The notes under the pieces were generated by a model, which worked only from the letters and a program-made list of their open reading frames with translations, ran no database searches and was not told the origin of the DNA. From contig JBIIFB010000003.1 of NCBI GenBank assembly GCA_044237545.1, positions 1-53,761 of the forward strand: 53,761 bases of DNA, in the 5' to 3' direction. Positions 7,824-53,557 of this stretch are shown in pieces (position 1 is the stretch's first letter; each line of letters begins with the position of its first letter). This stretch comes from Pirellulales bacterium. Its GTDB lineage: Bacteria; Planctomycetota; Planctomycetia; Pirellulales; UBA1268. Both the position numbers and the translations under genes were made by a program.

Positions 7824-7882
7824 GCGTGCCCGGCCGAACGTGGACGAGTTCATGCCCTGACCTGACGACAGGAAGGATTGTT

Positions 7883-29380: not shown

Positions 29381-29665
29381 CATACAAGCCCCCGGCGTGA
29401 GCCGGGGGATCGGCAGTACGGAATCCCGTCGCTCACGCTCAGGGCTTGTATGAAGCCCGGAGGCGAGGAATCCCGTCGCTCACGTCCCCATACAAGCCCC
29501 CGGCGTAAGCCGGGGGATCGGCAGTACGGAATCCCGTCGCTCGCGCTCAGGGCTTGTATGAACCCTTCCCATAAAAGCCCTCGGCGTGAGCCGGGGGATC
29601 GGCAGCGGGGAATCCCGTCGCTCACGCTCAGGGCTTGTATGGGAAGCGTGAGCGACGGGATTCCT
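29381..29665. repeat. REP cluster 2: three 72-bp inverted REP doublets (REPIN/BIME-like)
   Basis: CATACAAGCCCCCGGCGTGAGCCGGGGGATCGGCAG-N-GGAATCCCGTCGCTCACGCTCAGGGCTTGTATG at 29381-29452, 29489-29560 and 29570-29641, plus partial units. Confidence 0.92.
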
Positions 29666-37539: not shown

Positions 37540-37831
37540 GTCCCATCGCTTACGCTCCGGGCTTGTATGCACGCTCCCAATACAAGCCCCCGGCGTGAGC
37601 CGGGGGATCGGGAGCAAGGAATCCCGTCGCTTACGCTCAGGGCTTGTATAAAGCTTGAAGGTAAGGAATCCCGTCGCTCACGCTCAGGGCTTGTATGAAG
37701 CTTGGAGGCAAGGAATTCTGTCGCTTACGCTCAGGGCTTGTATGAAGCTTGGAGGCGGGGAATCCCGTCGCTTGCGCCGGGGGCTTGCATGGGGGGCGTT
37801 CATCGAAGCCCGGAGCGTGAGCGATGGGACT
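37540..37831. repeat. REP cluster 3: a doublet and a four-unit 47-bp tandem array
   Basis: Units begin GGAAT at 37618, 37665, 37712 and 37759 (period 47); further units at 37540, 37580 and 37801. Confidence 0.92.
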
Positions 37832-39173
37832 CCGCAGCCTCGGCTGCCTCGGCGATCGCGACGCTCACCCGCTCGAGAAACAGACCGGCACCGCGTCGCG
37901 GATCATCGTGTGCTGAACAGAGGCAGCAGAGTGCGAGCCGGCCGGCATACGTCGTCGCGCCAAGCGACGCCCTGGTCCAGGGCCGCAGTGGAGGCACGCC
38001 GATGCACCGCTCGATGACGACGTCCCCGGCCACGTCGCAGCCATCACGTTTCGGGAGTCCCGTCCGCATCCGCCGGGCCGGGTCGCCGACGTTGCTGACC
38101 ACGGCCGTCGAGAGGCAACCGGGGATCCGGGTCGCCAGCCAGAGCAGGCCCGGCCAGCGGCCGAGCAGGTCGAGCGTGTCGAGAAAGCCGCGGGCGGCAT
38201 CGTGCTCGAGAATCCAATCGGTAGCCGCGGCGATCGACCTGGTCAGCGGCCCCGGGGCAGCGCAGGCCGCTGCCGTTCGGTCGAGGAACGCATAGGCCAT
38301 CGCGTTGCGGGCCGGTTCCCGCGTGGCGGGAGACCGCATGCTCACCGGCACGGTGATCCGGACGTTGCCTGGCCGGCCCGAGGCCGAGGTGTTCCAGTCC
38401 ACGGCCGCCCGCATCACGGCGGCGACGACCAGGTCGTTGAGGGAGCCTCCGAGGGCCGCCGCCGCAGCCCGCAGGGCGTCGGTCTGTGCCGTGTCGAACT
38501 CGACCCAGGCATAGGGAGGACGACCGGCGTCGTCGGGATCGCGCTGGACGACGGGGCCGTGCAGGCGGGCCAAGGCCGTCGGTCGGAACCGGGCGAACTC
38601 CCAGGCTTCCGCGAGGCCGCTCCGCCGGGACGTTGTGGCCATGGCCGACGCCGCCGGCGGGGTGGCGGCTGACCGACGCCCGCTCTGGCCCGAAGTCCGG
38701 CCGGTGAAGGGGCGCGGCGAACCGCCGCCATAGATGGCCCAGATGTCGCCGGCCACCTCGAGCGCGGCCACTCCGTCGCAGGTCGAGTGGTGGAAGATCA
38801 TCACCACGCGCCGCCGATCCGGGCCCTCGGAAAGCACGACACACCGCAGGCCGCTCTCCCTGCGGAGATCGAATGGAGCCCACGGAGAGGGAGCTGATGG
38901 GGCGGGGTGCCAGACGACGGTCGGCTCCACGGCCGAGGCGATCCAACGGGGTGTCCCACGGTGGTAGGTGAGCAGGCTTGTGAGACGGGGATGCCGCCGC
39001 GCGGCCGCCGCGATCGCCGACCGGAGTCGATCCTCCCGCAGCGGTCCGGCGACCTGAAATTCGATGAAAAAACGCATCGGCTGCCGGGGCCTGTCATCGG
39101 CCAGCAGCAGCCGTTCGAACGGGTCGAACGGGCGGGGGACGGACTCACCGGCGGTCGTCAGGGCATCTTTCAT
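37800..39173 (-). CDS. Stand-alone condensation/CoA-dependent acyltransferase superfamily protein (PapA5/wax-ester-synthase-like)
   Basis: RHPRL, FDLRRE, catalytic-type HHSTCDG, SLNDLVVAA, VPVSMR, VSNVG; divergent from the PKS. Start approximate. Confidence 0.82.
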   Translation of the reverse strand: MKDALTTAGESVPRPFDPFERLLLADDRPRQPMRFFIEFQVAGPLREDRLRSAIAAAARRHPRLTSLLTYHRGTPRWIASAVEPTVVWHPAPSAPSPWAPFDLRRESGLRCVVLSEGPDRRRVVMIFHHSTCDGVAALEVAGDIWAIYGGGSPRPFTGRTSGQSGRRSAATPPAASAMATTSRRSGLAEAWEFARFRPTALARLHGPVVQRDPDDAGRPPYAWVEFDTAQTDALRAAAAALGGSLNDLVVAAVMRAAVDWNTSASGRPGNVRITVPVSMRSPATREPARNAMAYAFLDRTAAACAAPGPLTRSIAAATDWILEHDAARGFLDTLDLLGRWPGLLWLATRIPGCLSTAVVSNVGDPARRMRTGLPKRDGCDVAGDVVIERCIGVPPLRPWTRASLGATTYAGRLALCCLCSAHDDPRRGAGLFLERVSVAIAEAAEAAESHRSRSGLR

Positions 39174-39497
39174 GACTTGCCCGACGATACCTCGGCCCAG
39201 GCCGGAGAACGAATTGGCGGGAAATAAGTGCCCCGCGACGGCATAAATTACGCAGATTCCCCCGTTTGACACCATTTTCCCTCGGCGCATACTTCTCACT
39301 CAATTCTTCGAGCCGCAGCGACCACCTGCGGTCCGGTATCTCCCAGGGATGGGGTGTTTTCGCCAGGGCGAAGTGACTCGCTTGAAGCCATTCCATACCC
39401 CCACCCTACCTGCCGGCCACGGTCGCTCCGTCGCCGCACGCCGGCGCCTGCTGCTGCCGGGTCTAGGCAGATTCTCGAGAGAACAAGGACGACGTAC

Positions 39498-42400
39498 GTG
39501 AAGGAACCGCTTGCCATTGTCGGCATCGCTTGCAGGCTCCCGGGTGCTGACGGCATCGATGCATTCTGGGACCTCGTGGTCCGGGGCCGCACGGCCTGGG
39601 GACCGCTCCCGGAAGCGCGGTTCTCCCGCGAACTCTACTTTCATCCCGAGAAGAGCCGGCTGGGCAAGAGTTACTCAGAGATGGGCGCGGTCGTGCCCGA
39701 CCGTCCGGTCGATCCGACGGCCTGTCCGATCACGCCGGCGCTGCTCGAAAAGTATGACGTCGCCCACCACATCTTTCTCGAGGTGGCATCGCAGGCCTGC
39801 CGCGACGCAGGCCTCGATCCCTTCGCGATGCCCGGCGATCGACGCACCGGTGTTTACGTCGGCCATACCGGCGGCAGTACCAAGATCGGCGATATCGTCT
39901 ACGCGACGGGCATCGACGAGACCGCGACCTTCCTGTCGGAAGTGGATGCGGCGCGGGTGCTCCTTGGGGACGACGTTGAGGCGGTGGCAGCGGAACTGAC
40001 GGAGGCCGTGCGACGTCGGTACCCGGGCCGCCGACCGGGCCAGTCGCTCGATCTCGGGGCGCTCGGCGCCGCCAAGATCGTCCAGGAGGCGATGAAGCTC
40101 GACGGACCGTTCCTCGTGGTGGACGCGGCGTGCGCTTCGTCGCTGCAGGCGATGGCGATCGCTGCACGGTCGTTGCTGCAGGGGGGCATCGACCAGGCCA
40201 TCGTCGGTGGCGCCTCCTACTGCAAATCTGACAGTCTGGTGCTCTTCTCCGCGGCGCAGTCGGTGAGCAACGCCGGCTCCTGTCCCTTCGGCCAGGCGGC
40301 AGATGGCCTGATCACCGCCGAGGGCTACGTCGCGATCGTGATCAAGACGCTCTCCCGGGCGGTCGCTGATGGCGACCGGATCCGGGCGGTGATCCGCGGC
40401 CTGGGCGTCGCCAGCGATGGCAAGGGAAAGAGCCTGTGGGCGCCCCGGCAGGAGGGCCAGATCCTCGCGGTCGAACGTGCCTATCCCGATCTCGCCGATC
40501 TGTCCCGGCTCGAGTACATCGAGGCCCACGCCACGAGCACGCAGGTTGGCGATGCCACGGAACTCGGCGCCCTCTCCGCGCTGATGCGGAAGCACCTGCC
40601 GCCGGGTCGGCAGGTCCCGATCGGCAGCGTGAAGGCGAATATCGGCCACACGCTCGAGACGGCGGGGATCGCCAGTCTCGTGAAGGTCGTCCTCGCCATG
40701 GACCACGGCATGATTCCGCCCGGCTCCACATGTGACGAGCTCAATCAGGAGTTCGACTGGGCGGACGGCCCCTTTACGGTGCCGCGGCAGGCGGTCGCCT
40801 GGCCTGCGCACGCCGACGGCTCTCCACGCTGCGCCGCGGTCAACGCCTTCGGCATCGGGGGCCTGAACGTCCATGTCGCCCTGTTCGAGCATCTGCCGAC
40901 GCCCGCGGCCGTGCGGCCGGCCCGTGCCGTGGCCACCGAGGCTGATGCGATCGCGGTGGTGGGCGCCGGCTGCGTGTTGCCCGGTGCCCTCTCGCTCGAT
41001 GCCTTCGTCGATCTGCTCGGCCGGGGAGAGACCGCCATCGGTCCGGTGCCCGGCGACCGCTGGACCGCAGTCCGCGTGCTCGACACGACGCGGCCGAGAA
41101 CCTGGCACACCGCATCGGGCATCGGCGGCTTCGTCCGTGACTTCGCGTACGACTGGCGCCGGCACAAGGTGCCGCCCAAGCAGATCGCCGCCGCCAACCC
41201 GCTGCAGTTCATGCTGCTCGAGGCGGCCGACGCCGCCATCGCCGACGCCGGCGGGCCGCAGGCCGGCCTCGATCGCCGGCGGACCGGCGTCGTCGTGGGC
41301 ACCCTCTTCGGTGGCGACTTCGCCAACCAACTTCAGATGGGCCTGCGGCTCCCGGAGACCGGTCTCATCCTGCGGGCGGCGCTGGCCCGCCGCGGTGTCT
41401 CCCCGGCCGACGTCGAACGGATCGTGTCGCTGTATGAAAAGAAGCTACTGGAAAAGATGCCGGCACTCGTCGACGAGACCGGCAGCTTCACGAGCAGCAC
41501 GCTGGCCAGCCGGCTCACGAAGACCTTCGATCTGATGGGTGGAGCCCTGGCCCTCGACGCGGGGGACTGCTCGAGCCTGGCGGCGATCGCCGCCGCGGTG
41601 GACATGCTCCGCGAGCGGTCGTGCGACGCCGTGCTCTGTGCCGCCGGTGAGCGGTGCATGGATCTGATGGCCTACGAGGGGCGGTCGCTCGGGGGCTTCC
41701 TCTCTGACAATCCCATCTCGGTGCTCGACGGCAAAACCCGCGGCGGCGACGTGCCCGGCGAGGGCGCCGTGGTGTTCGTGCTCAAACGGCTCGCCGACGC
41801 GCAGGCGGCCGGCAATCGGATTCGCGGCGTGATCCGCGGGGTCTGCGTGGGCTCGGGGCAGACCCGTGCCGAGGCGACGCGGCGGGTCGTCCGTGAGGCG
41901 GTCGAGCGTTCCGGACTCGTGCCGACGGCCGTGATGGCGGTCGAGGTCGCCGTGGCGGGAGGCCATGCCAAGAGCGGCGAAGAACTCGTGGTGCTCGGCG
42001 GCCACTACGCCCAGCAGCGCGGCCCCGCCGAGCAGCCGCCGGTGGTGGGCTCGCTCGATGGGCAGATCGGACACGCCGGCGCAGCGGCGGGCGCGGCGGC
42101 CGTCGCGAAACTCTGCCTGGCACTCGGGCAGGGCTCGATGCCGCCGACGGTGGCGCTGGCCACCGGAGCCGTCGAGCCGCAGGGGCTGCGAGCCGCGGCA
42201 GCGTCGCTCCCGATCGGCACCTTCGATCAGTCGGGCTACCGGGCAGGCAGCGTGACCGTCATCCAGGAGCGGCAGGTCGGCCATTTGGTGCTCGACAACG
42301 GCCTCCCCGTGCCGGCCGCCGCCCAGGCTGGAAACCGACCGCAGGTGGCTGCGCGGCCGGCCGGCCGGCAGGCCGATGTGGCGGAACGGCCGCTGATCGC

Positions 42401-45400
42401 GGCTCTGTTCCCCGGCCAGGGATCGCAATACACCGACATGTTTCGCGGGCTCGTCGAGGAGTCGGCCGAAGCACGGGACTGTCTTGCCCGGCTCGATACG
42501 TTCGCCCGCGAGGCGGGCTGCGAGACGCTGGCGGAGATCGCCTGGCGGCCGGTCAACGGGCTGGGCACGAAGATCTGGGACACGCAGTGGGCGATGTACC
42601 TTGGGGACCTCTTTGCCTGGGACATGCTGCGTGGGATGGGCTTCACGCCCGACTGTATCGCCAGCCACAGCTTTGGAGAGTTTCCGTCACTCGTGGCAGC
42701 GGCCGCCTGGACGATGGCCGACGGGGTGATCGCGACCCGGGCCCGTGCCGAGGCGGTTGAACAGTTCGGCCCGCGAGACGGCGCCATGCTTTCGATCATC
42801 GCCGACCGGGCGACCGTGCAGGCGGCGGTCGCGCCGTTCGCCGGCCATGTCTGGATCTGCGCGGAGAATGCGCCGGAGCAGTTCGTGGTGGGCGGAACCG
42901 TCCGCATGGTCGATGCCGTCGAGGCCGTCCTGGAAGCCGGCCGCATCCACTCGAAGCGACTCGCCGTTCCCAGTCCGTTCCACACGCCGCTGCTCGAGCC
43001 GGCGGCGGGCCGGTTGGCCCACGAGATCGCCAGACTCGCCATCCAGCCGCCGCGGATCACGACGTACGGCAGCACCAGCGCGGAACGCCTTGCGTCTACG
43101 GCCGACGTGCGGTCGAGCCTGGTCCGGCAGATGTCGGAGACCGTTCGCTGGATCGATACGGTGGAGCATCTCTACGCCGCCGGCGTGCGGACGTTCGTCG
43201 AGGTCGGGCCGTCGGGCGTCCTCTGCGGGCTGTCGCGGCGGATTCTCAAAGGCCGCACCGACGTGACGTTCGTGCAGTTTGACCAGCGTGGCAAGAGCCC
43301 GCGGGAGCACCTGGCCAGACTGCGTGAGCAACTCGCCGCGGCCGGTGCGTCTGCATCCGGAGGCCGTCCGGCGACCGTGTCCCCGCGGGCGCAGACCGTC
43401 TCCAGATCGGCTGACGCGGCGCCTGTTCCGATGACGGCGGAAGCCCCCCCGGGGCGGATCATCCGCTTCGACGCGACGGCGCGGCGCCGCGAACGCAACC
43501 GCAATGCCGGGGAACAGTCGGGTGCGACCAACGGATCCGCAGCGGTGCCGGCAGTCGCGACGTCGACAGTCCGTGCGACGCCGGGCGGCAATGGCTCCGG
43601 GCCCATGAATAGCACTCCCCGCGCTGACGACGGCGACCATGCCATCGGAGCGACTTCGAAGAACGGCAGTGCCCCTGCGGCCAGGTCGGCGGGTGAGCCA
43701 GTGGCGGCCGCCGGCGGCCGCCTGTCGAACAACCTGTCGGCTACGCTGGCGACCACCCTGGCGGGATCGAACGGAGCCGCCCTCCTCGACCGGGCCGTCG
43801 TGCCGAGCCGTCATGCAGCCGAGCCGCTGCCGACGCCCGGGGCCGGCACGAACAGCCTCGAAGAGCTTGTCAGGCAACTCGTGGCGGAGGCGGGTGTCAG
43901 CCTGCCGCTCGGTCGCCTCGGCGAGCAGACCCCGGCCGTCAGCGGCTTCCTCGACAGCATCTCGCACCTCTTCGAGCCGGCGGCGACCGATCGATCGGCG
44001 GTTCTGGCGGCTGGTTCTCTCGCCGATCTCTGCAGCGTGCTGGGGCGGGCGGGCGGCAAGGCGCGGTGGCTGCTGAGTCAGTCGGCGGCGGAGCAGCCCA
44101 ACGCCGACGGGATCGAGACGTTCCTGATCGACTTCGTCGTGGAGCAGACGGGCTATCCGCGTGAGATCGTAGAACTCGACGCCGACCTGGAGGCAGACCT
44201 CGGAATCGACAGCATCCGCAAGGCTCAGCTCTTCGGCGAGATCGGCCAGCGGTATGGGCTGACGGCGGATGCGAGCCTGTCGCTCGACGACTTCACGACG
44301 CTACGGCATCTGCTCGACTACATTCTGCCGCGGGTCGGCGGTCGGGCACACGCTGCCGGTGCAGCGACACCGGCGCACGCCGAGCCGGCCCGCGATGCGA
44401 CGGCTGCTGCGTCTGCCGCGGCGCCGGCCGTTGCGTCTGCTGCTGCGCCGGCCGTGGCGCCGGCCGCTACCGCGGGACGTGCCGCGGAACTCGAGACGTT
44501 CCTGATCGACTTCGTTGTAGAGCAGACGGGCTATCCGCGTGAGATCGTGGAGCTCGACGCCGACCTGGAGGCAGACCTCGGAATCGACAGCATCCGTAAG
44601 GCCCAACTCTTCGGCGAGATTGGCCAGCGGTATGGGCTGACGGCGGATGCGAGCCTGTCGCTCGACGACTTCACGACGCTGCGGCACCTGCTCGACTACA
44701 TCCTGCCGCGGGTCGGGGCCTCGGCCGCGCCTGCCTCGACCGCGCCTTCCTCGACGGGGGTAGCCTTCGAGCCGCCGATCAGCGCCGCCACGGCCGCCGC
44801 CACCGACCGCGGCCGACGGCTGGGCCGGGATCATGCCGAGGCGATCCGCCTCTGGGCCCGGCAGTTCTCCGCCGCCCCGCCACGGTCCGTGCCGGCCCTC
44901 ACCGACCCGGTCGTCATGGCTGAACTATCCGCCATCGCCGACGCAGTGGGAATCGACGAGGCGATCGTTCGGGCCGCATACCACGATCCTGCGCGGGCCC
45001 TCGGCGGCTGTGCGGCGATCGTCGTCGCACCGCGCAAGGCCGACACAGCCCGCGGCCTGCTGGCCTGTTTCGGCCGGGGGGCCGATCCCGACGTCCGCTC
45101 CTTCGAAGTCGCGGGGCTGCGGGCCACGCTCGTGGGCGTGAAGGGATTGCCCGGCGCCATTCTGGGCTGGAACGACGCCGGACTCCTGGCACTGGCCGAC
45201 CCGCACGCCGGAGCGGCGGCGGCCACGGTCGAGGTGATCGTCACAACCTGCCGCTCGGCGGCCGAGGCGGGCCGCTTGATCGCGACGCTCGACCCGATCC
45301 CCGTGGGGCTCATGGTGGCCGATCTCGAAGAGGGCGGGCAGGCGGTGTCCGCGTCTGGAACGCTCGTTCCCGAACAGTCGGTCGTGATGCGGCTTGAGCC

Positions 45401-48110
45401 GGGGACAACGCTGGCCCGCGTCGCGCTCGCCGACGGTGCCACGACACCCACCGACGCGATCGAGACCTTCATCGCAGAATCGGGGGGCGCGGCCCGCGCC
45501 GCACTGTCGGCCGCATCGCCATGGCTCGTGGTGGGCGCGGCCGGTGGCGTGGCGATGCAACGATCGGGTGGGCCACTCGGCCGCGATTGGCTAGGTGGCG
45601 GCGTGCCGGGCCCCGCCTGGGTGGCGGCGGCGGGGCGACAGCAACAGGCCGCCGCACCGGCGGCCGAGGTGACCCAGCGGTACACCCTGACAACCCGCGA
45701 ACTACCGCCGGTGCAGGGGGTGCGTTCGCTGCGGGGTGAACGGGTCCTCGTGCTCGGCGACGGACACGCCGCGGAGGCGGTTCGTGCCGCAGTGGTCGCC
45801 GAGGGGGCGGTGGTTGTCACCCAAGCGGCCCGCACCAGCGACGAGGCCGTCGCGGCGGTCGATCGCGCCGAGGCGCAGGGGCCGGTGCGACACCTCGTCA
45901 TCGCGTCGGCGCGGCCCGGCATGCCGGCCCGCTGGCTCGACAGGGGTGATGCCGCAGTAGGGGTACCATTCTTCGCCTGCCAACGTTGGATCGGGCTCCG
46001 GTCCGCAGCCGGCGAACTCGACCGTTCGACGCTCACCGCGGTGACCGACCTGGGGGGCGACTTCGGCCTCTCGGGCACCATGGCCGCCGTGGAGGGGGGG
46101 GCGGTCGCGGGGCTGTTCAAGAATCTGGTCCACGAGTTCCCGGGGCTGCACGTCCGCGTCGTCGATGCGGCGGCGGCGCTGCCTGCCGCCACGCTCGCCG
46201 CGGGCGTGCTGGCCGAGATGCGTGACGGCGCAGGACCGGTCGAAGTCGGCCTGGACGGCGGTCGCCGGCTGGGCGTCGTGGCCTGCGCAGCCCCGGCCGA
46301 ACCGACCCGACGGCTCGCGGCCCTCGAGAAGGGGAGCGTCTGGATCGCCACCGGCGGCGCCCGCGGTGTGACCGCGGCCTGCTGCCGGGAGCTGGGGCGG
46401 AGGTATCCGGTGCGGCTCGTGCTGCTCGGCTCGACGCACCCCGTCGGGATCGACCCGGCGTGGCTTGCGCTCAACGAGGCGGGACTCCGCGACCTGAAGG
46501 GTCGAGTCATGCTCGAGGCGAAGCAGCGGGGGGCCGACCCGCGGGCCGCCTGGCGGGCGGTTGAAAAGTCACGTGAGATCGAGGCCTCGCTCGTCGCATT
46601 TCGTGCGGCGGGCGTCGATGCCCGCTACGAAGCCTGCGACCTGGCCGACGCGACGGCGGTGCGGGCGGTCGTGCAGCGTGTGGAACGAGATCTCGGCCCG
46701 GTCCGCGGCATCGTCCACGGGGCCGGTTTCGAGGCCGCCTGCCGGTTCGAAAAGAAAACCCGCGAGGGACTCCTGGCGACGCTCGCGCCCAAGTGCATCG
46801 GTCTCGAGCATCTGCTCGCGGCGCTGGATCCCACAACGCTTGAGGCGGTCGTCGGCTTCGGATCGACGAGCGGCCGGCTCGGCGGCCACGGGCAGGCCGA
46901 CTATTCGCTCGCCAACGACCTGCTCGCCAAGATCGTCGGCAGCCTGCGCCGCAGCCGTCCGGGACTGCGGGCAACCGTCTTCCACTGGCATGCCTGGGAC
47001 GAGGTCGGGATGGCCAGCCGGCCCGAGAGCCGGTTCGTGCTCGAGCAGTTCGGCCTGCGGTTCATGCCACTGGCCGAGGGCGTGCGGCGGTTCATGGACG
47101 AGATCGAGGCTGGACTGCCCGACGCCGAGGTGCTCGTCACAGAACCGGCCCTGTGTCCCGACGCCGTCCCGGCGACCGGTCGGCCCGCTGCCCCGACACC
47201 GCAGCCGGCCGTGAACCCGCCAGCCGCGGCGGTCGTTGCGACGGAGGTCGGCAGCCTCGTCGAGCGGGTCGAGTCGCGGCCCGACGGCACCTGGGTGTCT
47301 TTCCGGCTCGACCCGACATCCGATCGTTTCCTCATCGATCACCTCCAGTACGGCCGGCCGCTTCTCCCGGCCGTGATGGGCGCCGAACTGCTCGTCCAGG
47401 CCGTGCGGGCAGCTTCCGGAGGAATCGAGGTCGGCGAACTCCGCGACTTCGTCGTCGAGCGGCCGATCGCGTTCCCCGTCGATGCTCCCCGCGAAGTCCG
47501 CGTCGAGGTGGGGCCCGTCACGTCGGCGGGCATCGAGACCCGCGGCTGGACCGCGATCGTCGCCGGCGATGGCCGCACCGCAGGCGAGGATCGGGTGCAC
47601 GTACATGGCCGGATCGTGCCCGGCGCACCGGAACGGATCGACGCCGTGCTCGAGCAGCCGCCGTTCCCGTTCAACCCGATGTACTACCAGGAGGATGCCC
47701 CGCTGCGGCATGGGCCATCCTTCCGCACGCTCGACGGCCTGTTTCTTGACCGCAGCGGCGGCTGGGGCCGGCTCGTCTCGCAGCATGGCGACGGCGTCGC
47801 CCTACCGCGGGGTTCGAAGGGCTGGACGATTCCCGTCGGCTTGCTCGACGGCTGCATCGTGGCATGTGCGGTCTACTCCTACATCCTCTGCGGCCGGCGT
47901 GTGGAGATTCCCGTGCAGTTCGAGCGGCTCCGGGTGGCCGCGCAACCGCGCGGGGGCGAGAAGTGCATCGCGCGGCTCTTCTTCCGGTCGCAGGATGTCC
48001 GCGAAACGGTCTATGACGTCGTGCTCCACGGCGATGACGGCCGCGTCATCCTCGCCGTGGACGGCCTGCACCTGGCCGTCGTCGGTGGTGAGCGGGGTCG
48101 CGTCTCATGA
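39498..48110 (+). CDS. Iterative type I PKS/FAS (PUFA/Hgl-like): KS-CLF-AT-ACP-ACP-C45-like-KR-DH
   Basis: GTG start after AAGGA. KS: DAACASS, EAHATST, KANIGH. Second KS: DAGDCSS, lacking the first His. AT: FPGQGSQ, SHSFG, SPFH. Two LGIDSIR ACPs. KR: TGGARGV, GQADYSLAN. DH: HLQYGRPLLP, LLDGC. Confidence 0.95.
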   Translation: MKEPLAIVGIACRLPGADGIDAFWDLVVRGRTAWGPLPEARFSRELYFHPEKSRLGKSYSEMGAVVPDRPVDPTACPITPALLEKYDVAHHIFLEVASQACRDAGLDPFAMPGDRRTGVYVGHTGGSTKIGDIVYATGIDETATFLSEVDAARVLLGDDVEAVAAELTEAVRRRYPGRRPGQSLDLGALGAAKIVQEAMKLDGPFLVVDAACASSLQAMAIAARSLLQGGIDQAIVGGASYCKSDSLVLFSAAQSVSNAGSCPFGQAADGLITAEGYVAIVIKTLSRAVADGDRIRAVIRGLGVASDGKGKSLWAPRQEGQILAVERAYPDLADLSRLEYIEAHATSTQVGDATELGALSALMRKHLPPGRQVPIGSVKANIGHTLETAGIASLVKVVLAMDHGMIPPGSTCDELNQEFDWADGPFTVPRQAVAWPAHADGSPRCAAVNAFGIGGLNVHVALFEHLPTPAAVRPARAVATEADAIAVVGAGCVLPGALSLDAFVDLLGRGETAIGPVPGDRWTAVRVLDTTRPRTWHTASGIGGFVRDFAYDWRRHKVPPKQIAAANPLQFMLLEAADAAIADAGGPQAGLDRRRTGVVVGTLFGGDFANQLQMGLRLPETGLILRAALARRGVSPADVERIVSLYEKKLLEKMPALVDETGSFTSSTLASRLTKTFDLMGGALALDAGDCSSLAAIAAAVDMLRERSCDAVLCAAGERCMDLMAYEGRSLGGFLSDNPISVLDGKTRGGDVPGEGAVVFVLKRLADAQAAGNRIRGVIRGVCVGSGQTRAEATRRVVREAVERSGLVPTAVMAVEVAVAGGHAKSGEELVVLGGHYAQQRGPAEQPPVVGSLDGQIGHAGAAAGAAAVAKLCLALGQGSMPPTVALATGAVEPQGLRAAAASLPIGTFDQSGYRAGSVTVIQERQVGHLVLDNGLPVPAAAQAGNRPQVAARPAGRQADVAERPLIAALFPGQGSQYTDMFRGLVEESAEARDCLARLDTFAREAGCETLAEIAWRPVNGLGTKIWDTQWAMYLGDLFAWDMLRGMGFTPDCIASHSFGEFPSLVAAAAWTMADGVIATRARAEAVEQFGPRDGAMLSIIADRATVQAAVAPFAGHVWICAENAPEQFVVGGTVRMVDAVEAVLEAGRIHSKRLAVPSPFHTPLLEPAAGRLAHEIARLAIQPPRITTYGSTSAERLASTADVRSSLVRQMSETVRWIDTVEHLYAAGVRTFVEVGPSGVLCGLSRRILKGRTDVTFVQFDQRGKSPREHLARLREQLAAAGASASGGRPATVSPRAQTVSRSADAAPVPMTAEAPPGRIIRFDATARRRERNRNAGEQSGATNGSAAVPAVATSTVRATPGGNGSGPMNSTPRADDGDHAIGATSKNGSAPAARSAGEPVAAAGGRLSNNLSATLATTLAGSNGAALLDRAVVPSRHAAEPLPTPGAGTNSLEELVRQLVAEAGVSLPLGRLGEQTPAVSGFLDSISHLFEPAATDRSAVLAAGSLADLCSVLGRAGGKARWLLSQSAAEQPNADGIETFLIDFVVEQTGYPREIVELDADLEADLGIDSIRKAQLFGEIGQRYGLTADASLSLDDFTTLRHLLDYILPRVGGRAHAAGAATPAHAEPARDATAAASAAAPAVASAAAPAVAPAATAGRAAELETFLIDFVVEQTGYPREIVELDADLEADLGIDSIRKAQLFGEIGQRYGLTADASLSLDDFTTLRHLLDYILPRVGASAAPASTAPSSTGVAFEPPISAATAAATDRGRRLGRDHAEAIRLWARQFSAAPPRSVPALTDPVVMAELSAIADAVGIDEAIVRAAYHDPARALGGCAAIVVAPRKADTARGLLACFGRGADPDVRSFEVAGLRATLVGVKGLPGAILGWNDAGLLALADPHAGAAAATVEVIVTTCRSAAEAGRLIATLDPIPVGLMVADLEEGGQAVSASGTLVPEQSVVMRLEPGTTLARVALADGATTPTDAIETFIAESGGAARAALSAASPWLVVGAAGGVAMQRSGGPLGRDWLGGGVPGPAWVAAAGRQQQAAAPAAEVTQRYTLTTRELPPVQGVRSLRGERVLVLGDGHAAEAVRAAVVAEGAVVVTQAARTSDEAVAAVDRAEAQGPVRHLVIASARPGMPARWLDRGDAAVGVPFFACQRWIGLRSAAGELDRSTLTAVTDLGGDFGLSGTMAAVEGGAVAGLFKNLVHEFPGLHVRVVDAAAALPAATLAAGVLAEMRDGAGPVEVGLDGGRRLGVVACAAPAEPTRRLAALEKGSVWIATGGARGVTAACCRELGRRYPVRLVLLGSTHPVGIDPAWLALNEAGLRDLKGRVMLEAKQRGADPRAAWRAVEKSREIEASLVAFRAAGVDARYEACDLADATAVRAVVQRVERDLGPVRGIVHGAGFEAACRFEKKTREGLLATLAPKCIGLEHLLAALDPTTLEAVVGFGSTSGRLGGHGQADYSLANDLLAKIVGSLRRSRPGLRATVFHWHAWDEVGMASRPESRFVLEQFGLRFMPLAEGVRRFMDEIEAGLPDAEVLVTEPALCPDAVPATGRPAAPTPQPAVNPPAAAVVATEVGSLVERVESRPDGTWVSFRLDPTSDRFLIDHLQYGRPLLPAVMGAELLVQAVRAASGGIEVGELRDFVVERPIAFPVDAPREVRVEVGPVTSAGIETRGWTAIVAGDGRTAGEDRVHVHGRIVPGAPERIDAVLEQPPFPFNPMYYQEDAPLRHGPSFRTLDGLFLDRSGGWGRLVSQHGDGVALPRGSKGWTIPVGLLDGCIVACAVYSYILCGRRVEIPVQFERLRVAAQPRGGEKCIARLFFRSQDVRETVYDVVLHGDDGRVILAVDGLHLAVVGGERGRVS
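44113..44716 (+). repeat. Duplicated ACP-coding segment (226 bp x2)
   Basis: 44113-44338 and 44491-44716 differ at about 11 positions by eye, all synonymous. Confidence 0.92.
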
Positions 48111-48814
48111 GCTGCGCCTCGACTCCGATCACCGCAGAAACGCCGACGTCTGATCCCCGGCCGTCGGTTTCAATCGCCCCCGACGTCATCCTTCACATGG
48201 GTGACGCGGAGGTGGCGGTCCGCCTTCGGACGCGCGGGCCGGGAGGCCCGCCGACATCGGCCGAGGCGGCCCGTCTTGCCGAGAGCCTCGTGGCCGACCG
48301 GCTCTCGCTCCACGCGGGTGGCGTGCGTGTCGCGTCGCTCGTGCCCTCGGGCAGGCCGGTCGCCTTCGCATTGGGAGCGCCGGCGGCGGTTTGCGTGTCG
48401 ATTTCTCACGTGCAGGGACTCCTTGGCGTTGCCGTCTCGACCGACGCCTCGATCGGCCTCGACATCGTCGATCCGGCCGAGGCGGGCCGCGGGCTCGACG
48501 TCTGGTTCACACCGGACGAACTCGCCCTCGCGCCCGATGAGGGACGGCTCCGCGCTGTCCTCTGGGCCGCGAAGGAGGCTGCCTATAAGGCCTGCCGCCT
48601 CGACACCGAATTTCGGCCGCATGCCGTCGTCATCGACAGTCTGGCCACGCGGTCCTTCGGCTGGACCGTCCGAGACCGCTTCGGTGACATCCGGGGGGCG
48701 GGGCGGCTGCTGGCGTTCGGCCGGCACGTCGTCGCCCTTGCGTCCGTCGCAGCCTGCGGCCACGCCGTTTCCAACCTGACCAGTCTCGAGACCCAGGAGG
48801 CACTCCTCACATGA
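48107..48814 (+). CDS. 4'-phosphopantetheinyl transferase (Sfp-like)
   Basis: PSGRP, VSISH, IGLDIV, WAAKEAAYKA; ATGA-coupled to both the PKS and the next gene. Confidence 0.88.
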   Translation: MSCASTPITAETPTSDPRPSVSIAPDVILHMGDAEVAVRLRTRGPGGPPTSAEAARLAESLVADRLSLHAGGVRVASLVPSGRPVAFALGAPAAVCVSISHVQGLLGVAVSTDASIGLDIVDPAEAGRGLDVWFTPDELALAPDEGRLRAVLWAAKEAAYKACRLDTEFRPHAVVIDSLATRSFGWTVRDRFGDIRGAGRLLAFGRHVVALASVAACGHAVSNLTSLETQEALLT

Positions 48815-49575
48815 TCGATCTCACCGGCAAGGTGGCGCTCGTCACCGGCTCCAGCCGCGGCATCGGTCGCGCGACCGCCCTGCGGCTGGCCGAGGCTGGC
48901 GCCGACATCGTCGTCAACTACATCACGAGCAGCCGCGAGGCGGAGCAGGTCGCTGAGATCGTGGCGGCGATGGGCCGCAATGTCGCCTGCGTGCGGGCCG
49001 ACGTCGGGCAGGAAGAGGATGTCGAAGACATGATCGCGTTCGTCCGCAGGGAATTCGGCCAGCTCGACGTCCTTGTCCATAACGCCGCCACCGGCGGCTT
49101 CCGCCCGCTGGCCGTCACCACGCAACGGCACTTCGACGCCGCGATGCACACGAATGTCCTCTCGCTGGTCCACCTGCTCAAGGCCGCCGCGCCACTCCTC
49201 GAGGCGGCACCGGGGCGGGGCAAGGTAGTCGTGCTGTCGAGCCACGGCACGCACATGGCGCTGCCGATGTACGGACTGATCGGCGGCTCGAAGGCGGCGC
49301 TCACGGCGCTGGCCAGGCACTGGGCCCTGGAACTTGGCGATCGTGGGGTGAACATCAACGTGGTCGAGGCTGGCCTCGTCGAGACCGACTCGACCCGTCG
49401 GCTGCCGGGCGCCGCCGAGATGTTCGCCGGCCGCAAGCACAAGACGATGACCGGCGACCGGATGCTGGAGGCGGCCGACGTCGCCGACGCCGTGCTCTTC
49501 CTGTCGAGCCCGCTGTCGGATCTCGTGCAGGGGCAGACGCTGGTGGTCGACGGAGGGGCGGCGATCCACGTCTGA
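48811..49575 (+). CDS. SDR oxidoreductase, FabL-like enoyl-ACP reductase
   Basis: TGSSRGIG, NAATGGFRP, Y-x6-K motif YGLIGGSK (enoyl-reductase spacing rather than YxxxK), GQTLVVDGG. Confidence 0.85.
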   Translation: MIDLTGKVALVTGSSRGIGRATALRLAEAGADIVVNYITSSREAEQVAEIVAAMGRNVACVRADVGQEEDVEDMIAFVRREFGQLDVLVHNAATGGFRPLAVTTQRHFDAAMHTNVLSLVHLLKAAAPLLEAAPGRGKVVVLSSHGTHMALPMYGLIGGSKAALTALARHWALELGDRGVNINVVEAGLVETDSTRRLPGAAEMFAGRKHKTMTGDRMLEAADVADAVLFLSSPLSDLVQGQTLVVDGGAAIHV

Positions 49576-49636
49576 CTCTGGCCGCTTCATGTTCGACCCC
49601 TGCGGCGACATCCTCGACGTTCCTACCACGACCATC

Positions 49637-51253
49637 ATGCACAACACCGACTCCTACATCCTGCTGACTGGCGCGACCGGCCTCCTGGGCCGGTCGCTCC
49701 TGCGCGACCTCGCCGCGGCGGGCCGCCGCGTCGCCGTCGTCGTCCGTCCGTCGAAGCTGGCGCGGGCGGCGGGCCGCGTCGACGAACTGCTCGAAGATTG
49801 GCGGCAGGTGGCGGGCGTTGAGGTGCCCTGCCCGGTCGTGCTCGAAGGGGATCTCTCCGTCGCCGGACTTGGCCTTCCGGGCCCGCAGGCGGCCTGGGTC
49901 GCGCGACACGTCCGCGAGGTGGTGCACTCCGCGGCCAGCCTCTCCTTCCAAATGCGACCGTCGGACGGCGAGCCCTACACCAGCAACGTGACCGGCACGC
50001 GGAACGTGCTGGCCCTCTGCCGCGACGCGGGAATCCGCCGGCTTCACCACGTGTCGAGCGCTTATGTGTGTGGCCTGCGGCAGGGGACGGTTCTCGAGAC
50101 CGAACTCGACGTCGGGCAGACGTCGGGCAACGACTACGAGAAGAGCAAGATCATCTCCGAGACCGAGGCGACCGGGGCCGACTTTCTCGACGTCTGCACG
50201 GTGCACCGGCCAAGCATTATCGTCGGCGACCTCGTGCATGGCTTCACCAACACCTTCCACGGCTTCTACAAGCCGTTGCGGATCGTGCAGCCGTTCGTGG
50301 AGGCCTTCGTGGGCGCAAGCCTCGAGCCGGGCTCGCTGCTCGACGTGCTCGGCATGGACGGCCGCGAGTGCAAGAACCTCGTGCCGGTGGACTGGGTCTC
50401 TGCGGTGATGACACGGATCATCGTCGATGAATCACTTCACGGCCGTACCTACCACGTCACATCCGACGCACCGACGAGTGTCGGCCTGCTCTGCCGCGTG
50501 TTCGAGGGGCTTGTCGTGGAGATGGCGGCCGAGGCAGGCCGCCGGCGATCGGCGTCGGCCGCCGGCGGATCCGGTGGCGGAAACCCCGCCGCGGGCTTCG
50601 ATCCCGCCACGCTCGGCCGGCTGTTCCTCGACCAGATGCACGTCTACAAGGCCTACTGGCGGGACGACCCCCGCTTTGACGCCTCGCACACCATCGCAGC
50701 GGTGCCGGGTCTCCCCGCACCGCCGCTCGACGAGGAGACGATCCGGCGGCTCTGCCGGTTTGCGATCGGGAACAACTTCCGCTGGCCTCCTCCCGGGCGG
50801 TGCGGCCCGCGCCCCACGGCACGCGATGGCCTCGAGGCCCGGTTGGGTGCCGCGTCCTGGACGGCTCCGCGGTCGCCGCACCGGCTCGGGCTGGTCGTCA
50901 CGGGCGCCGGCGGCGGCCAGTGGACGGTTGCGGTGGAAGGGGGTCGGCCCATGTCGCTGCATCACGGCCTCCCGTCCGCGGGTGACGCGACGCTCTGGAT
51001 GGCGGCGGACGAACTCGCCGGCATCATCGCCGGCGGACCCTCGCTCTCAGAGGTCCGCGACCGGGGCGGTGTCACCGTCGAAGGTGGCCCGCAGGATCGA
51101 AGGATGGCGGTCGAAACGCTCGACTCGATTCTGAGAGTGGCCGCCCACGACTCAGCGTGGGCATCCCCCGGCCAAGACGCCGATCAGGCCCGCTCGATGA
51201 CGCCCCCCGCAACCAGGGTCTTTCCGGAGAATCCGGCGAACGTCGGGGCGTAA
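49637..51253 (+). CDS. Thioester reductase (NAD_binding_4, fatty acyl reductase-like) with C-terminal SCP2-like domain
   Basis: LLTGATGLLG, HSAAS, HVSSAYVCG, YEKSK, RPSIIVGD, NLVPVDWV; C-terminal VTGAGGGQWTV...DATLWM resembles SCP2. Start could be 49589. Confidence 0.85.
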   Translation: MHNTDSYILLTGATGLLGRSLLRDLAAAGRRVAVVVRPSKLARAAGRVDELLEDWRQVAGVEVPCPVVLEGDLSVAGLGLPGPQAAWVARHVREVVHSAASLSFQMRPSDGEPYTSNVTGTRNVLALCRDAGIRRLHHVSSAYVCGLRQGTVLETELDVGQTSGNDYEKSKIISETEATGADFLDVCTVHRPSIIVGDLVHGFTNTFHGFYKPLRIVQPFVEAFVGASLEPGSLLDVLGMDGRECKNLVPVDWVSAVMTRIIVDESLHGRTYHVTSDAPTSVGLLCRVFEGLVVEMAAEAGRRRSASAAGGSGGGNPAAGFDPATLGRLFLDQMHVYKAYWRDDPRFDASHTIAAVPGLPAPPLDEETIRRLCRFAIGNNFRWPPPGRCGPRPTARDGLEARLGAASWTAPRSPHRLGLVVTGAGGGQWTVAVEGGRPMSLHHGLPSAGDATLWMAADELAGIIAGGPSLSEVRDRGGVTVEGGPQDRRMAVETLDSILRVAAHDSAWASPGQDADQARSMTPPATRVFPENPANVGA

Positions 51254-52686: not shown

Positions 52687-52918
52687 GGGACGCACCTCGT
52701 TTCGAGTTCGGATTCAAACCTCCTTGTTTTTGGGAGGCTATTCCTGGGTTCAGCCGCTGTCAAGCAATGCCACGGTGCGGCTCCGGCCCGATCGTGTCGG
52801 CTCCGGAGATGTGATGTCGCACGGGCTCTTATCGGCCGGTTGCCCCTCGCGTGCGTCGCTCTCGTCATCATGAATAGAGAAGGATGAATAGAGAAGGCCA
52901 CCCCCGGGAGGTAATCGG

Positions 52919-53557
52919 ATGCCCCGCCACCAGAAACAGATTGCTCCGCGAATGCTAACGCCGACGTTTTTAACGCCATATTCCCCTCCGGATCGCGACG
53001 GGACACGTTCGCTGGTTCTGCCGCTCATCGGCGGGTGCGTGGTCATCTGCGGCACCCTCGGCCGGCTGCCTGCCTCCCAGGCCGGCGACCTGCACTGCCC
53101 GGTGCTGCGGTCGCACGCCCCCGCAGCTGATGACGCTGCTGCCGACAGCCTCGTGGCGGCCGTGAACGCCGTCGTTCCGACCGACATCCAGATACCCACG
53201 GCGGCCCGCGTTGCTTGTGCAGAGAGGCGGCTGCCGGGATCACGGAATGCACTGGTCTCCCTACTCGCGGAGCAGCACGGACAACTGATCGCCGAGTGCG
53301 GCCGGGGACGCGCCGTCGTGAGGCGAGGAGTCCACGGGTTCGATCTGCTCACGCTCTTGCTCACACTCTTGGAGGAACCACCCGATGAGACCGACGACAG
53401 TGCCACGATCCGGGGGTGTTTCGATGTGGGGGCCGTGGATGTCGCCGTCGGCAAGGGATTGTCCGATGGAGCCTATCCGATCGGCTTCGACTGGGTGCTC
53501 GTACTCGACCACGAATCGCACGTGCTCTACAGCTTTATCCTCAACTGTAGTGATTGA
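52919..53557 (+). CDS. Hypothetical protein, possibly exported
   Basis: GGAGGT RBS before ATG 52919; hydrophobic LVLPLIGGCVVICG; protein-like C-terminus DWVLVLDHESHVLYSFILNCSD; no family recognised. Confidence 0.6.
   Translation: MPRHQKQIAPRMLTPTFLTPYSPPDRDGTRSLVLPLIGGCVVICGTLGRLPASQAGDLHCPVLRSHAPAADDAAADSLVAAVNAVVPTDIQIPTAARVACAERRLPGSRNALVSLLAEQHGQLIAECGRGRAVVRRGVHGFDLLTLLLTLLEEPPDETDDSATIRGCFDVGAVDVAVGKGLSDGAYPIGFDWVLVLDHESHVLYSFILNCSD

Follow-up and report, generated by a model that had tools for sequence, protein, structure and literature searches.

PapA5 forms an ester between an acid carried on the synthase and a long-chain alcohol, in pks/papA pairs the acyltransferase gene lies beside an iterative synthase gene, and a wax-ester pathway joins a fatty acyl reductase to a WS/DGAT enzyme, for example in Marinobacter. 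For the heterocyst glycolipid (hgl) islands, PMC11804610 lists KS/CLF/AT/ACP/KR/DH/ER/TR/PPTase domains and links hgl-like islands without the glycosyltransferase (hglT) to tetracosane-1,3-diol, C24 1,3-diols. Shulse and Allen, in their description of the 'Type R' secondary lipid synthase of Acidobacteria, Roseiflexus and Elusimicrobium, report that a PPTase gene comes after a single pfaA-like gene with KS, MAT, CLF, ACPn and KR (PMC3098273). The long amino-alcohol chains of the zeamine pathway are products of stand-alone TR enzymes, as outlined in PMC13291983. Our searches found no characterised counterpart of the planctomycete cluster described here, which lies in a stretch of 53,761 nucleotides (the window) from an uncultured lake bacterium and which, on balance, we regard as an accessory island of freshwater Pirellulales encoding a self-contained secondary lipid pathway.

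Gene layout and co-inheritance

Five genes with family support occupy 37800-51253, where the initial annotation had counted six. On the minus strand, a 457-aa HHxxxDG acyltransferase (37800..39173; motif and Pfam PapA_C) is separated by a 324-bp divergent intergenic region (39174..39497) from the plus-strand gene of a 2870-aa iterative type I synthase (39498, GTG, to 48110), in which Pfam and NCBIfam domains and a predicted structure give the order KS-CLF-AT-ACP-ACP-Ntn-like-KR-DH. On the same strand follow a 4'-phosphopantetheinyl transferase (PPTase; 48107..48814; Pfam ACPS, 32 bits), an SDR gene predicted to encode a FabL-type enoyl-ACP reductase (48811..49575), and a stand-alone thioester reductase with a C-terminal SCP2-like domain (49589..51253; NAD_binding_4, 115.7 bits). 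As initially annotated, the synthase, PPTase and SDR genes are ATGA-coupled through 4-nt overlaps, ctcATGAgc at 48107-48110 and cacATGAtc at 48811-48814, and the acyltransferase gene diverges across about 320 bp. Only 13 nt separate the SDR stop from the reductase ATG; the reductase could instead start at the second ATG, 49637. The orthologues support the synthase start at 39498, since no more than about 8-30 residues precede the KS in them. The divergent region 39174-39497 held one sigma-70-like site (39266-39293), no excess over shuffled sequences (1 versus 0.9 expected). Contigs of an independent lake metagenome span 37807-41893 and 44657-53321, and contig breaks in the assemblies, this metagenome included, fall at the ACP repeat, so that the number of ACPs is a minimum.

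The initial annotation had raised the question of whether the accessory genes are co-conserved with the synthase, and they are. In 41 related genomes, 20 with the synthase and 21 without, orthologues of the FabL-like SDR (at least 64% identity) and of the reductase were found in the same 20/20 synthase-bearing genomes and in 0/21 others, and the acyltransferase in 19/20, missing in a genome that is 74% complete (G009), with the reservation that, in draft genomes, joint absence is to some extent expected, as adjacent genes drop out together. The best FabL-like match in the 21 genomes without the synthase reached 35%; given this restriction to synthase-bearing genomes, the gene is distinct from the housekeeping reductase. 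Close loci carried the PPTase in 37/41 cases, the SDR in 27/27 with at least 3 kb downstream, the reductase in 22/23 with at least 4.5 kb downstream, and the acyltransferase in 12/16 whose upstream flank was at least 1.5 kb long; L039, L045, L049 and L070 lacked it there despite sufficient flank. The gene set recurs in three gene orders overall, including RED-PKS-PPT-SDR-<AT, seen at 10 loci of more distant Pirellulales (with the AT in 7/7 that have enough flank), and RED-PKS-Rieske-SDR-AT in another order of the Planctomycetia, and some of the distant Planctomycetia carriers are complete genomes. The cluster genes form a real unit.

In most relatives the cluster includes a Rieske oxygenase or two; the window's genome yielded none, suggesting that the window's cluster may be a reduced form. 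A sixth gene, encoding an arylsulfotransferase-like β-propeller on the minus strand (51184..52695; PF05935, 92 bits), overlaps the end of 37800-51253 by 70 nt; its orthologues occur in 8/20 synthase-bearing genomes, adjoining the cluster in three different arrangements, and its GC content is 0.634 versus 0.69-0.72 in the five core genes. It is probably an optional neighbour, not a core member. A reductase paralogue adjoins the acyltransferase in three loci (L046, L057 and L068), and in five genomes (G020, G022, G023, G037 and G040) paralogues of the reductase and the acyltransferase share a contig as pairs; pairs of this kind without a synthase exist in relatives.

Synthase domains and the proposed pathway

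The synthase begins with a KS (39504..40907; Pfam, orthologue alignment) whose catalytic Cys-His-His is intact, followed by a second KS-like domain (40944..42155) in which the catalytic Cys is replaced by Asp or Glu (Asp in the window) and the first His is gone, in the window and in 5/5 aligned relatives, which makes it a CLF. Residues 3-717, spanning KS and CLF, align in a single stretch with the solved chain 6riw_A, which we take to be the PfaC KS-CLF. A malonyl-type AT domain (42405..43250; SHSFGE; Pfam Acyl_transf_1, NCBIfam FabD at 158 bits) precedes two tandem ACP domains (44113..44716; PP-binding in two stretches, LGIDSIRK twice), whose DNA repeats directly over 226 nt at 95% identity and a spacing of 378. 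Beyond an Ntn-hydrolase-like domain X (44775..45653) lie a KR with its structural N-terminal half (45741..47003; Pfam KR at 46344-47003, solved KR matches), whose TGGARG and YSLAN motifs are invariant in the orthologue alignment, and a PKS-type DH (47268..48092; HLQYGRPLLP; PKS_DH_N, PS-DH). The KS-CLF head and AT-ACPn-KR-DH body initially annotated were thus found, but the Ntn-like domain between the ACPs and the KR had gone unmentioned. Likewise, the polypeptide contains no ER or TE Pfam domain, as had been stated, but the translationally coupled SDR gene would provide a dedicated ER. This SDR bears YGLIGGSK (Y-x6-K), its best of 235 NCBIfam families is FabL (251.5 bits, under the cut-off of 328), and its best solved match is 3oic_A (183 bits; next 126 bits), with Tyr and Lys aligned. 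Its sequence thus predicts a FabL-type enoyl-ACP reductase, in which case the enoyl reductase of the synthase is supplied in trans.

We lean towards a secondary-lipid pathway in which an iterative synthase works with a trans-acting ER and its chain is released reductively to an alcohol and esterified. The PPTase would activate the tandem ACPs, the KS paired with the CLF would iteratively elongate a malonyl-derived chain, and each round would be reduced by the KR, the DH and the dedicated FabL-type ER, yielding a presumably long, largely saturated acyl-ACP with a β- or mid-chain hydroxyl possible where reduction is skipped. Given that both DH and ER are present, the chain is probably mostly saturated and not the (poly)hydroxy alcohol first envisaged. 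As there is no thioesterase, the chain would leave by reduction, the thioester reductase converting acyl-ACP to an aldehyde or, by a putative four-electron reduction, to an alcohol, with the lipid held by its SCP2-like tail. The PapA5/WS-DGAT-like acyltransferase may then esterify this alcohol, its candidate acceptor, drawing on an acyl thioester that could be another chain still bound to the synthase, and the expected end product would be a wax-ester-like neutral lipid; the 'surface lipid' label of the initial annotation found no support. The embedded Ntn-hydrolase-like domain may aid off-loading or holding of the chain.

Proposed release and esterification, and alternative readings

The reductase contains TGATGLLG and YEKSK motifs, and its model matches the terminal R domains 4u7w and 8v1x at a TM-score of 0.69, predicting the fold of a terminal R domain. 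Its tail (about 50819-51136, plus strand) is modelled in the order helix, four strands, helices, strand, helix, and its GGGQW is invariant in the alignment. SCP2_2 matches the tail at E = 0.0068 (17.4 bits, under the cut-off of 23.2), SCP2-clan matches, also sub-threshold, occur in 5/15 reductase orthologues, and nine orthologous reductases are without the tail. The reductase-SCP2 gene initially annotated close downstream is therefore in place as a reductase, while its SCP2 identity is probable but weakly supported. The acyltransferase carries HHSTCDG and reaches 31 bits with Pfam PapA_C (cut-off 30), 43 bits with NCBIfam PapA5 (cut-off 396) and 33 bits with WS/DGAT (cut-off 310); its nearest Atlas clusters are Condensation/WS-DGAT (score 0.99), and it is 55% and 30% identical to the synthase's divergent neighbour in L035 and L073, respectively. 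It is predicted to belong to the PapA5/WS-DGAT/condensation superfamily.

Mycobacterial relatives of this acyltransferase acylate sugars as well as diols. Acting like the mycobacterial polyketide-associated proteins, it might move the synthase-bound chain to a non-lipid acceptor (a sugar, polyol or amino compound) to form a glycolipid or amino lipid, with the reductase supplying some other co-substrate or a product of its own, which we consider rather unlikely. Its best families, PapA_C/PapA5 and Condensation, and its position next to an iterative synthase, as in pks/papA pairs, are in line with such a transfer, and the 4/16 loci that keep synthase and reductase without a neighbouring acyltransferase suggest that the two enzymes need not act in series. 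However, the cluster contains no glycosyltransferase and no sugar- or amino-acid-activating gene, and outside the synthase cluster the acyltransferase is repeatedly paired with reductase paralogues, which fits the alcohol-then-ester logic of the initial proposal. That proposal ignored the Ntn-like domain as a possible alternative catalyst of release or transfer.

The Ntn-like fold, defined by a predicted structure and Foldseek, comprises about 290 residues, in which a helical pro-segment leads to a Gly-Cys at 45003-45008 (model pLDDT 85), which we liken to the IAT cleavage site. All Foldseek matches listed at E <= 0.001 are Ntn hydrolases, ranks 1-7 being 2x1c/2x1d/2x1e (isopenicillin-N acyltransferase; best E 3e-6), followed by acid ceramidase and NAAA; no Pfam match was found at E < 1. 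After self-cleavage at Gly-Cys, the Cys could pass the ACP-bound chain either to water, which would leave a free acid, or to an amine, which would leave an N-acyl lipid; reductase and acyltransferase would act later, on the released acid. The resemblance to these enzymes (E 3e-6 to 2e-4), the pro-segment and the Cys opening the first strand, both positioned as in the matched enzymes, and the absence of a TE domain speak for such off-loading, but several features make it improbable. TM-scores are low (0.34-0.44), and the Cys is kept in only 9/17 orthologues (Phe in five, and Ser, Ile and Leu in one each); GWNDAGL is invariant. No other part of the synthase is as poorly conserved as this domain (29-48% versus 60-70%), and beyond the close clade it can hardly be detected, the best match scoring 13.7 bits.

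AntiSMASH-type tools would label the cluster T1PKS or hglE-KS, calls that have no known product in planctomycetes (PMC13190842). An ordinary bioactive polyketide cluster or a chance neighbourhood of unrelated genes is nonetheless very improbable given that there is one module only, which has a CLF and tandem ACPs, together with a fatty-acid-type ER and a fatty-acyl-type reductase, and given the perfect co-inheritance and the recurrence of the set in three gene orders. For other planctomycete pfa-like clusters, a pathway of the pfaABCDE type leading to PUFAs or olefins, ole being present or not, has been proposed, Shulse and Allen tying to olefins the Type I clusters that they describe in Gemmata (PMC3098273), and PfaA is the best NCBIfam model for the synthase (matching KS and KR-DH) and the KS-CLF aligns with 6riw, but we give this reading almost no credence, since the PfaA score is under its cut-off (719.9 versus 1010.1 bits), the Pfam search found no FabA-type dehydratase/isomerase domain in the synthase, the ER is of the FabL type, and no PfaD-type ER lies in the cluster, the genome giving only partial NMO matches (33.5 and 26.6 bits).

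Comparison with known lipid systems

Taken as a whole, the initial interpretation is partly supported, and the cluster that we read as a reductive-release and esterification pathway shares parts with several described systems. Like PfaABCDE, the window's synthase has tandem ACPs and a dedicated PPTase, with the KS and KR-DH best described by the PfaA model below its cut-off, but its KS-CLF is fused ahead of AT-ACP-KR-DH, and the FabA-type DH pair, PfaB and FMN-type PfaD are missing from the cluster. The succession of a single pfaA-like synthase gene and a PPTase gene recalls 'Type R' as described in PMC3098273, whose order is KS-MAT-CLF rather than KS-CLF-AT; the loci found here in Acidobacteria, Actinobacteria and Caldilineae read KS-AT-(weak KS)-ACPn-KR(-DH), KR-region identity is about 30%, and none of the SDR, reductase and PPTase was found in the 'Type R'-like loci searched.

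As in mycobacterial Mas/Pps with PapA5 (phthiocerol dimycocerosate) and other pks/papA pairs, a PapA/condensation-superfamily HHxxxDG acyltransferase lies beside an iterative reducing synthase, but the PapA5 match is weak (43 versus 396 bits), the synthase is of a different type and the cluster has no FAAL or MmpL gene. With the fatty acyl reductase and WS/DGAT pathway, it shares an NAD_binding_4 reductase, an HHxxxDG acyltransferase and the alcohol-then-ester logic, whereas its chain would come from a dedicated type I synthase and not the general fatty-acid pool, and the WS/DGAT model scores 33 versus 310 bits. Zeamine and fabclavine pathways likewise join a Pfa-like secondary lipid synthase to recruited stand-alone reductases for a long-chain alcohol (PMC13291983), but use aminotransferase domains and NRPS-PKS partners, none of which occurs in the window's cluster.

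The likeness to heterocyst glycolipid systems noted at the outset held up. The cyanobacterial island hglE/F/G/D/C/A/B with hglT lacks the extra Ntn-like domain, and unlike hgl no ABC exporter genes were found near the window's cluster. By contrast to hgl, a single fused polypeptide carries the synthase domains, KS-CLF-AT-ACP-X-KR-DH, the ER would be a FabL-type SDR, and an acyltransferase takes the place of the hgl glycosyltransferase. The catalytic set, tandem ACP included, is nevertheless the same KS/CLF/AT/ACP/KR/DH/ER/TR/PPTase set as in the hgl list (PMC11804610), and the hgl island releases its chain by reduction, as an alcohol or diol of long chain length, much as in the pathway proposed here.

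Gene layout and composition

Five genes with family support lie within 37800-51253: a PapA5/WS-DGAT-like acyltransferase on the minus strand (37800..39173, ATG at 39173, motif HHSTCDG), followed on the plus strand by a type I synthase of 2870 aa recognised through its Pfam domains (39498..48110), a PPTase (48107..48814), an SDR for which FabL is the best-ranked NCBIfam family (48811..49575) and an NAD_binding_4 reductase (49589..51253). ATGA overlaps were read at both the synthase/PPTase and PPTase/SDR junctions, and 13 nt separate the SDR stop from the reductase ATG, bearing out the coupled arrangement with a close-lying reductase described in the initial annotation. The HHxxxDG acyltransferase placed there across about 320 bp likewise diverges from the synthase, over a gap of 324 bp. 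However, the proposed six genes become five, as the sixth candidate, an arylsulfotransferase-like beta-propeller gene on the minus strand (51184..52695, PF05935), lies mostly outside the cluster range and overlaps the last 70 nt of the reductase.

The five cluster genes have a GC content of 0.69-0.72 against 0.649 for the genome (5-kb windows: standard deviation 0.022, 99th percentile 0.693). Such a composition, combined with the cluster's patchy distribution, fits an accessory island. Orthologues of the arylsulfotransferase-like gene adjoin the cluster in three arrangements but occur in only 8 of the 20 genomes carrying the synthase, and its GC content of 0.634 is that of the genome background, so it was rejected as a core member.

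Elsewhere in the window lie genes for sulfatases and a DUF1559 protein along with housekeeping genes. Among the 28 scanned ORFs of the window, no transporter or glycosyltransferase adjoins the cluster, and promoter and terminator scans gave nothing beyond what shuffles give. Three very long open frames (window 2221-5202, 7718-11761 and 11838-16154) each contain two or three sulfatase domains, one of them also a BD-FAE esterase domain. The five cluster genes form the most GC-rich part of the whole genome. Just 3′ of the acyltransferase stop, at 37540-37790, a ~50-nt unit is repeated in tandem about five times; it is also present at 19021-19211 and 29382-29665 and produced 977 HSPs across the window's own genome in a blastn-short search (200-300 per base). 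Metagenome contig depth at this repeat is ~50-80x that of neighbouring bins in 4 of 4 runs. These repeats are a REP-like interspersed family marking the left edge of the cluster.

The synthase and its partner enzymes

Pfam searches with the whole synthase and with eight pieces of it identified a KS, a second KS-like domain, an AT, two PP-binding domains, a KR and a PKS-type DH (PKS_DH_N and PS-DH), with no ER, TE or FabA-type DH in either the whole protein or the pieces. Both KS-like domains of the window and of five relatives were aligned with the genome's own FabF. The first KS kept Cys-His-His, and the second carried Asp at the Cys position (Glu in one relative) and had lost the first His, indicating a domain of the chain-length-factor type. 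The KS-CLF didomain formed a single alignment, over residues 3-717, with the solved chain 6riw_A, the KS-CLF didomain of PfaC. The best NCBIfam model for the synthase, PfaA (TIGR02813), reached 719.9 bits against a cut-off of 1010.1 and was matched separately by the KS part and the KR-DH part. Including an Ntn-hydrolase-like stretch (X) between the ACPs and the KR, the order is KS-CLF-AT-ACP2-X-KR-DH; Pfam order and CLF residues thus agree with the earlier proposal of one polypeptide joining a KS-CLF head to an AT-ACPn-KR-DH body.

A repeat search showed the ACP pair to be a direct repeat of 226 nt with 95% identity, which is absent from the TRF listing. Because contigs of an independent metagenome break exactly at this repeat, two ACPs represent a minimum count; relatives have three. 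Synthases of distant Pirellulales (loci L072, L073, L080 and L115/L116) measure 3600-3770 aa; their AT is flanked by ACPs on both sides, and the DH is preceded by two KR-like units in succession.

Judged by sequence, the SDR is a FabL-type enoyl reductase, predicted to act as a dedicated trans-ER translationally coupled to the synthase. FabL (NF005975) ranked first of 235 NCBIfam families for this protein at 251.5 bits, below its cut-off of 328, and the best solved match was 3oic_A, annotated 'enoyl-ACP reductase [NADPH]', at 183 bits, compared with 126 bits for the best FabG. In addition, its YGLIGGSK aligns with YTTVGVSK of 3oic_A, in which Tyr-x6-Lys is the FabL catalytic spacing. A search for the FabV family matched nothing, the controls included, and so says nothing either way. 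The earlier statement that no ER is present therefore holds for the synthase polypeptide but not for the coupled SDR, which is FabL-like.

The reductase matched PF07993 at 115.7 bits (cut-off 20.1), contains TGATGLLG (TGxxGxxG) and YEKSK (YxxxK) motifs, and scored 93 bits against 213 with TIGR01746. Its model, based on 16 orthologues (pLDDT 80), matched the terminal R domains 4u7w and 8v1x in Foldseek (E ~3e-18, TM 0.69 on target), the R domain dominating the matches of the whole-model fold search. The tail (residues ~411-516) was modelled confidently as an alpha/beta unit, in which GGGQW is invariant. SCP2-clan Pfam matches to this tail were sub-threshold in the window (E 0.0068, 17.4 bits against 23.2) and in the orthologues (SCP2_2 in 5 of 15, Alkyl_sulf_C in 3 of 15, SCP2 in 2 of 15; best E 1.5e-4), a tail profile reached E 0.069 at best against solved structures, and nine orthologues stop at ~430 aa without a tail. 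Of the reductase-SCP2 gene described initially, the thioester reductase stands on PF07993 and the R-domain fold, and the SCP2 tail is probable.

Taken together, the predicted activities would cover every step of a reducing cycle, release by reduction and ester formation. We favour, with moderate confidence, a pathway in which the synthase would act iteratively with the trans-ER, building a long acyl-ACP that is largely saturated; the reductase would release it as an aldehyde or alcohol, and the acyltransferase would esterify the alcohol. As to chain length, the number of retained hydroxyls, two- versus four-electron reduction and the acyl donor, these are parts of the pathway that we infer.

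The acyltransferase scored 31 bits with PapA_C (cut-off 30), 43 with PapA5 (cut-off 396) and 33 with WS/DGAT (cut-off 310), with no solved relative found by sequence search. A PapA-like transfer to a non-lipid acceptor, with which the PapA_C match would be compatible, appears unlikely; the recurrent pairing of reductase and acyltransferase supports the esterification step. In loci L046, L057 and L068 the acyltransferase adjoins an additional reductase without a tail, and reductase-acyltransferase paralogue pairs share one contig in genomes G020, G022, G023, G037 and G040. The window's own genome encodes a second fatty-acyl-reductase-like paralogue, likewise tail-less (G000:C103:2945-4096), that is 64% identical to the one adjoining the acyltransferase in L046.

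The embedded Ntn-like domain is an unusual feature of this synthase that the initial annotation did not mention. The ~290 residues from the ACPs to the KR had no Pfam match at E < 1, and a language-model look-up gave the AAT/NAAA/CBAH families as a lead only (score 0.79). We obtained an AlphaFold model from 17 orthologues (pLDDT 85), and among the Foldseek matches listed at E <= 0.001 all were Ntn hydrolases, at TM of only 0.34-0.44: isopenicillin-N acyltransferase, which gave the best E (3e-6), acid ceramidase and NAAA. In this model, a Gly-Cys stands at the start of the first strand, preceded by a helical pro-segment, and GWNDAGL is invariant. The candidate nucleophile Cys is present in the window and kept by 9 of the 17 orthologues, the others having Phe (5), Ser (1), Ile (1) or Leu (1). 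Conservation across the synthase is lowest in this domain, which beyond the close clade is barely detectable, at 13.7 bits at best, in the right position.

These features allow a bolder joint reading, in which the synthase would self-cleave at the Gly-Cys of an isopenicillin-N-acyltransferase/acid-ceramidase-like domain, that Cys would serve as a chain-release acyltransferase of a kind new to fatty-acid/polyketide synthases, and the cluster family, distributed across Planctomycetia and abundant in lake plankton, would make very-long-chain alcohols, diols or wax esters of a class as yet unassigned. We consider this combination quite improbable; if it were true, orphan long-chain lipid biomarkers of fresh waters could have a bacterial source in these products. 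Chain release through the Ntn-like domain as a rival to reductive release, to which the Gly-Cys and the Ntn-hydrolase matches would lend themselves and the replaced Cys of the remaining orthologues would not, is very improbable, and we retain release by the reductase as the preferred step.

Distribution and gene order in Planctomycetota

We compared 41 genomes, the window's own and 40 relatives; these are drafts that lose adjacent genes together, so that co-absence weighs less than co-presence. The synthase occurs in 20 of the 41, and FabL-like orthologues (64-96% identity) are found in exactly these carriers and in 0 of the 21 others, where the best match was 35%. Reductase orthologues occur in the same 20 genomes, and the acyltransferase in 19 of them, the missing one being a 74% complete genome. 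Of the 20 genomes of the window's genus, 12 have the set. G019, a genome of this genus that lacks the synthase, has the reductase (88% and 65% identity) and the arylsulfotransferase-like gene only as fragments (G019:C196:2240-2964, G019:C488:11597-12263), which may reflect cluster decay or faulty assembly.

Species-representative genomes supplied 41 close loci, 37 of which have the PPTase; the SDR is present in 27 of the 27 with at least 3 kb downstream, the reductase in 22 of the 23 with at least 4.5 kb downstream, and the acyltransferase in 12 of the 16 with at least 1.5 kb upstream (missing from L039, L045, L049 and L070). Ten distant Pirellulales loci have the order reductase-synthase-PPTase-SDR, then the acyltransferase on the opposite strand, the last being present in 7 of 7 with enough flank. 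A KR-DH profile matched 9 of 401 sampled genomes of the phylum, the window's own included, at E <= 1e-80. Four of these were opened: two from another order of the class have reductase-synthase-Rieske-SDR-acyltransferase, a third from that other order has reductase-synthase-SDR, and in the fourth, from the window's order, the set is present and its acyltransferase lies 2.6 kb past the reductase. The synteny survey across Planctomycetota suggested with the initial annotation thus finds the accessory genes co-conserved with the synthase, and one gene content in three gene orders argues for function rather than mere neighbourhood inheritance. An ordinary polyketide or a chance neighbourhood is therefore scarcely credible.

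Rieske oxygenases (PF00355 and PF00848) of two types accompany the cluster in most relatives, between the PPTase and SDR, after the reductase, or both. The loci concerned lie among L031-L071 and L113-L118, the other order included (e.g. L035:13835-15178 and L064:4232-5782). None was found in the window's own genome, which is 92% complete, by tblastn at E < 1e-8.

The cluster family is common in lake-water metagenomes, the window being found in part or whole in 20 runs of 16 studies, with no RNA run listed among them, and its conservation extends over at least two orders of Planctomycetia. The carriers G213 and G310 (the other order) and G230 (the window's order) are 99% complete genomes in 1 to 10 contigs; should any of these be in culture, its product could be tested for directly, and the outcome would provide a lipid class for a group in which neither the lipids nor the type I synthases have been characterised to any real extent.

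Comparison with known lipid synthases

The KS-CLF didomain resembles that of PUFA (Pfa) synthases, but three tested defining features of the latter, a PfaA model match at cut-off, the paired FabA-type DH/isomerase of PfaC, and PfaD, are all lacking here, so this is not a Pfa synthase. For the PfaD-type FMN enoyl reductase (NMO family), nothing was found in the window, and the 92% complete own genome gave only partial PF03060 matches, at 33.5 and 26.6 bits, on other contigs. With the FabA-type DH and PfaD missing, a PUFA or olefin route is excluded in practice despite the shared didomain.

The activities of the hgl island, KS, CLF, AT, ACP, KR, DH, ER, TER and PPTase, are all represented, with an ER of a different family (SDR). 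By contrast, hgl islands have HglT and the Hgd/Dev exporters, and no GT or ABC/MFP was found among the 28 scanned ORFs of the window; lacking a glycosyltransferase and exporters and having a different ER family, the cluster is not an hgl island. Overall, the initial observation is confirmed with corrections, and its interpretation as a route to an acylated long-chain alcohol is partly supported.

In the accessible text of Shulse and Allen, Type R comprises one pfaA homologue, KS-MAT-CLF-ACP(3-6)-KR, then a PPTase gene (PMC3098273). The present cluster also has a PPTase gene after the synthase but differs in its order, KS-CLF-AT-ACP2-X-KR-DH; it is not single-gene Type R, and its domain order is not among their Types A-T (20 types), as far as the text of that source, by which alone they were compared, describes them (PMC3098273). 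The accessible parts of planctomycete papers go no further than counting 'hglE-KS' or type I PKS clusters or listing metabolites that have been characterised, of which none comes from such a synthase (PMC13190842, PMC12078418). In a full-text literature collection that takes in few subscription journals, we found no description of this architecture, of a type I synthase paired with a FabL-type ER, or of a PKS containing an Ntn/C45 domain.

The known products of 'secondary lipid' synthases are a handful, namely PUFAs, heterocyst glycolipids, phenolic lipids and zeamine-type hybrids, according to the accessible part of one account (PMC13291983). In the portion available of another, hgl islands list the same activities as found here, and those without a glycosyltransferase are linked to tetracosane-1,3-diol (PMC11804610); the hgl precedent is the closest analogy to the cluster. 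Among secondary-lipid synthases the present one stands out by its unusual type of ER and its embedded Ntn-like domain. The cluster family has an architecture of its own, which combines a fused KS-CLF-AT-ACP-KR-DH synthase, a putative SDR-type trans-ER, a reductase with a probable lipid-carrier tail and a PapA-like acyltransferase, joined in most relatives by Rieske oxygenases.
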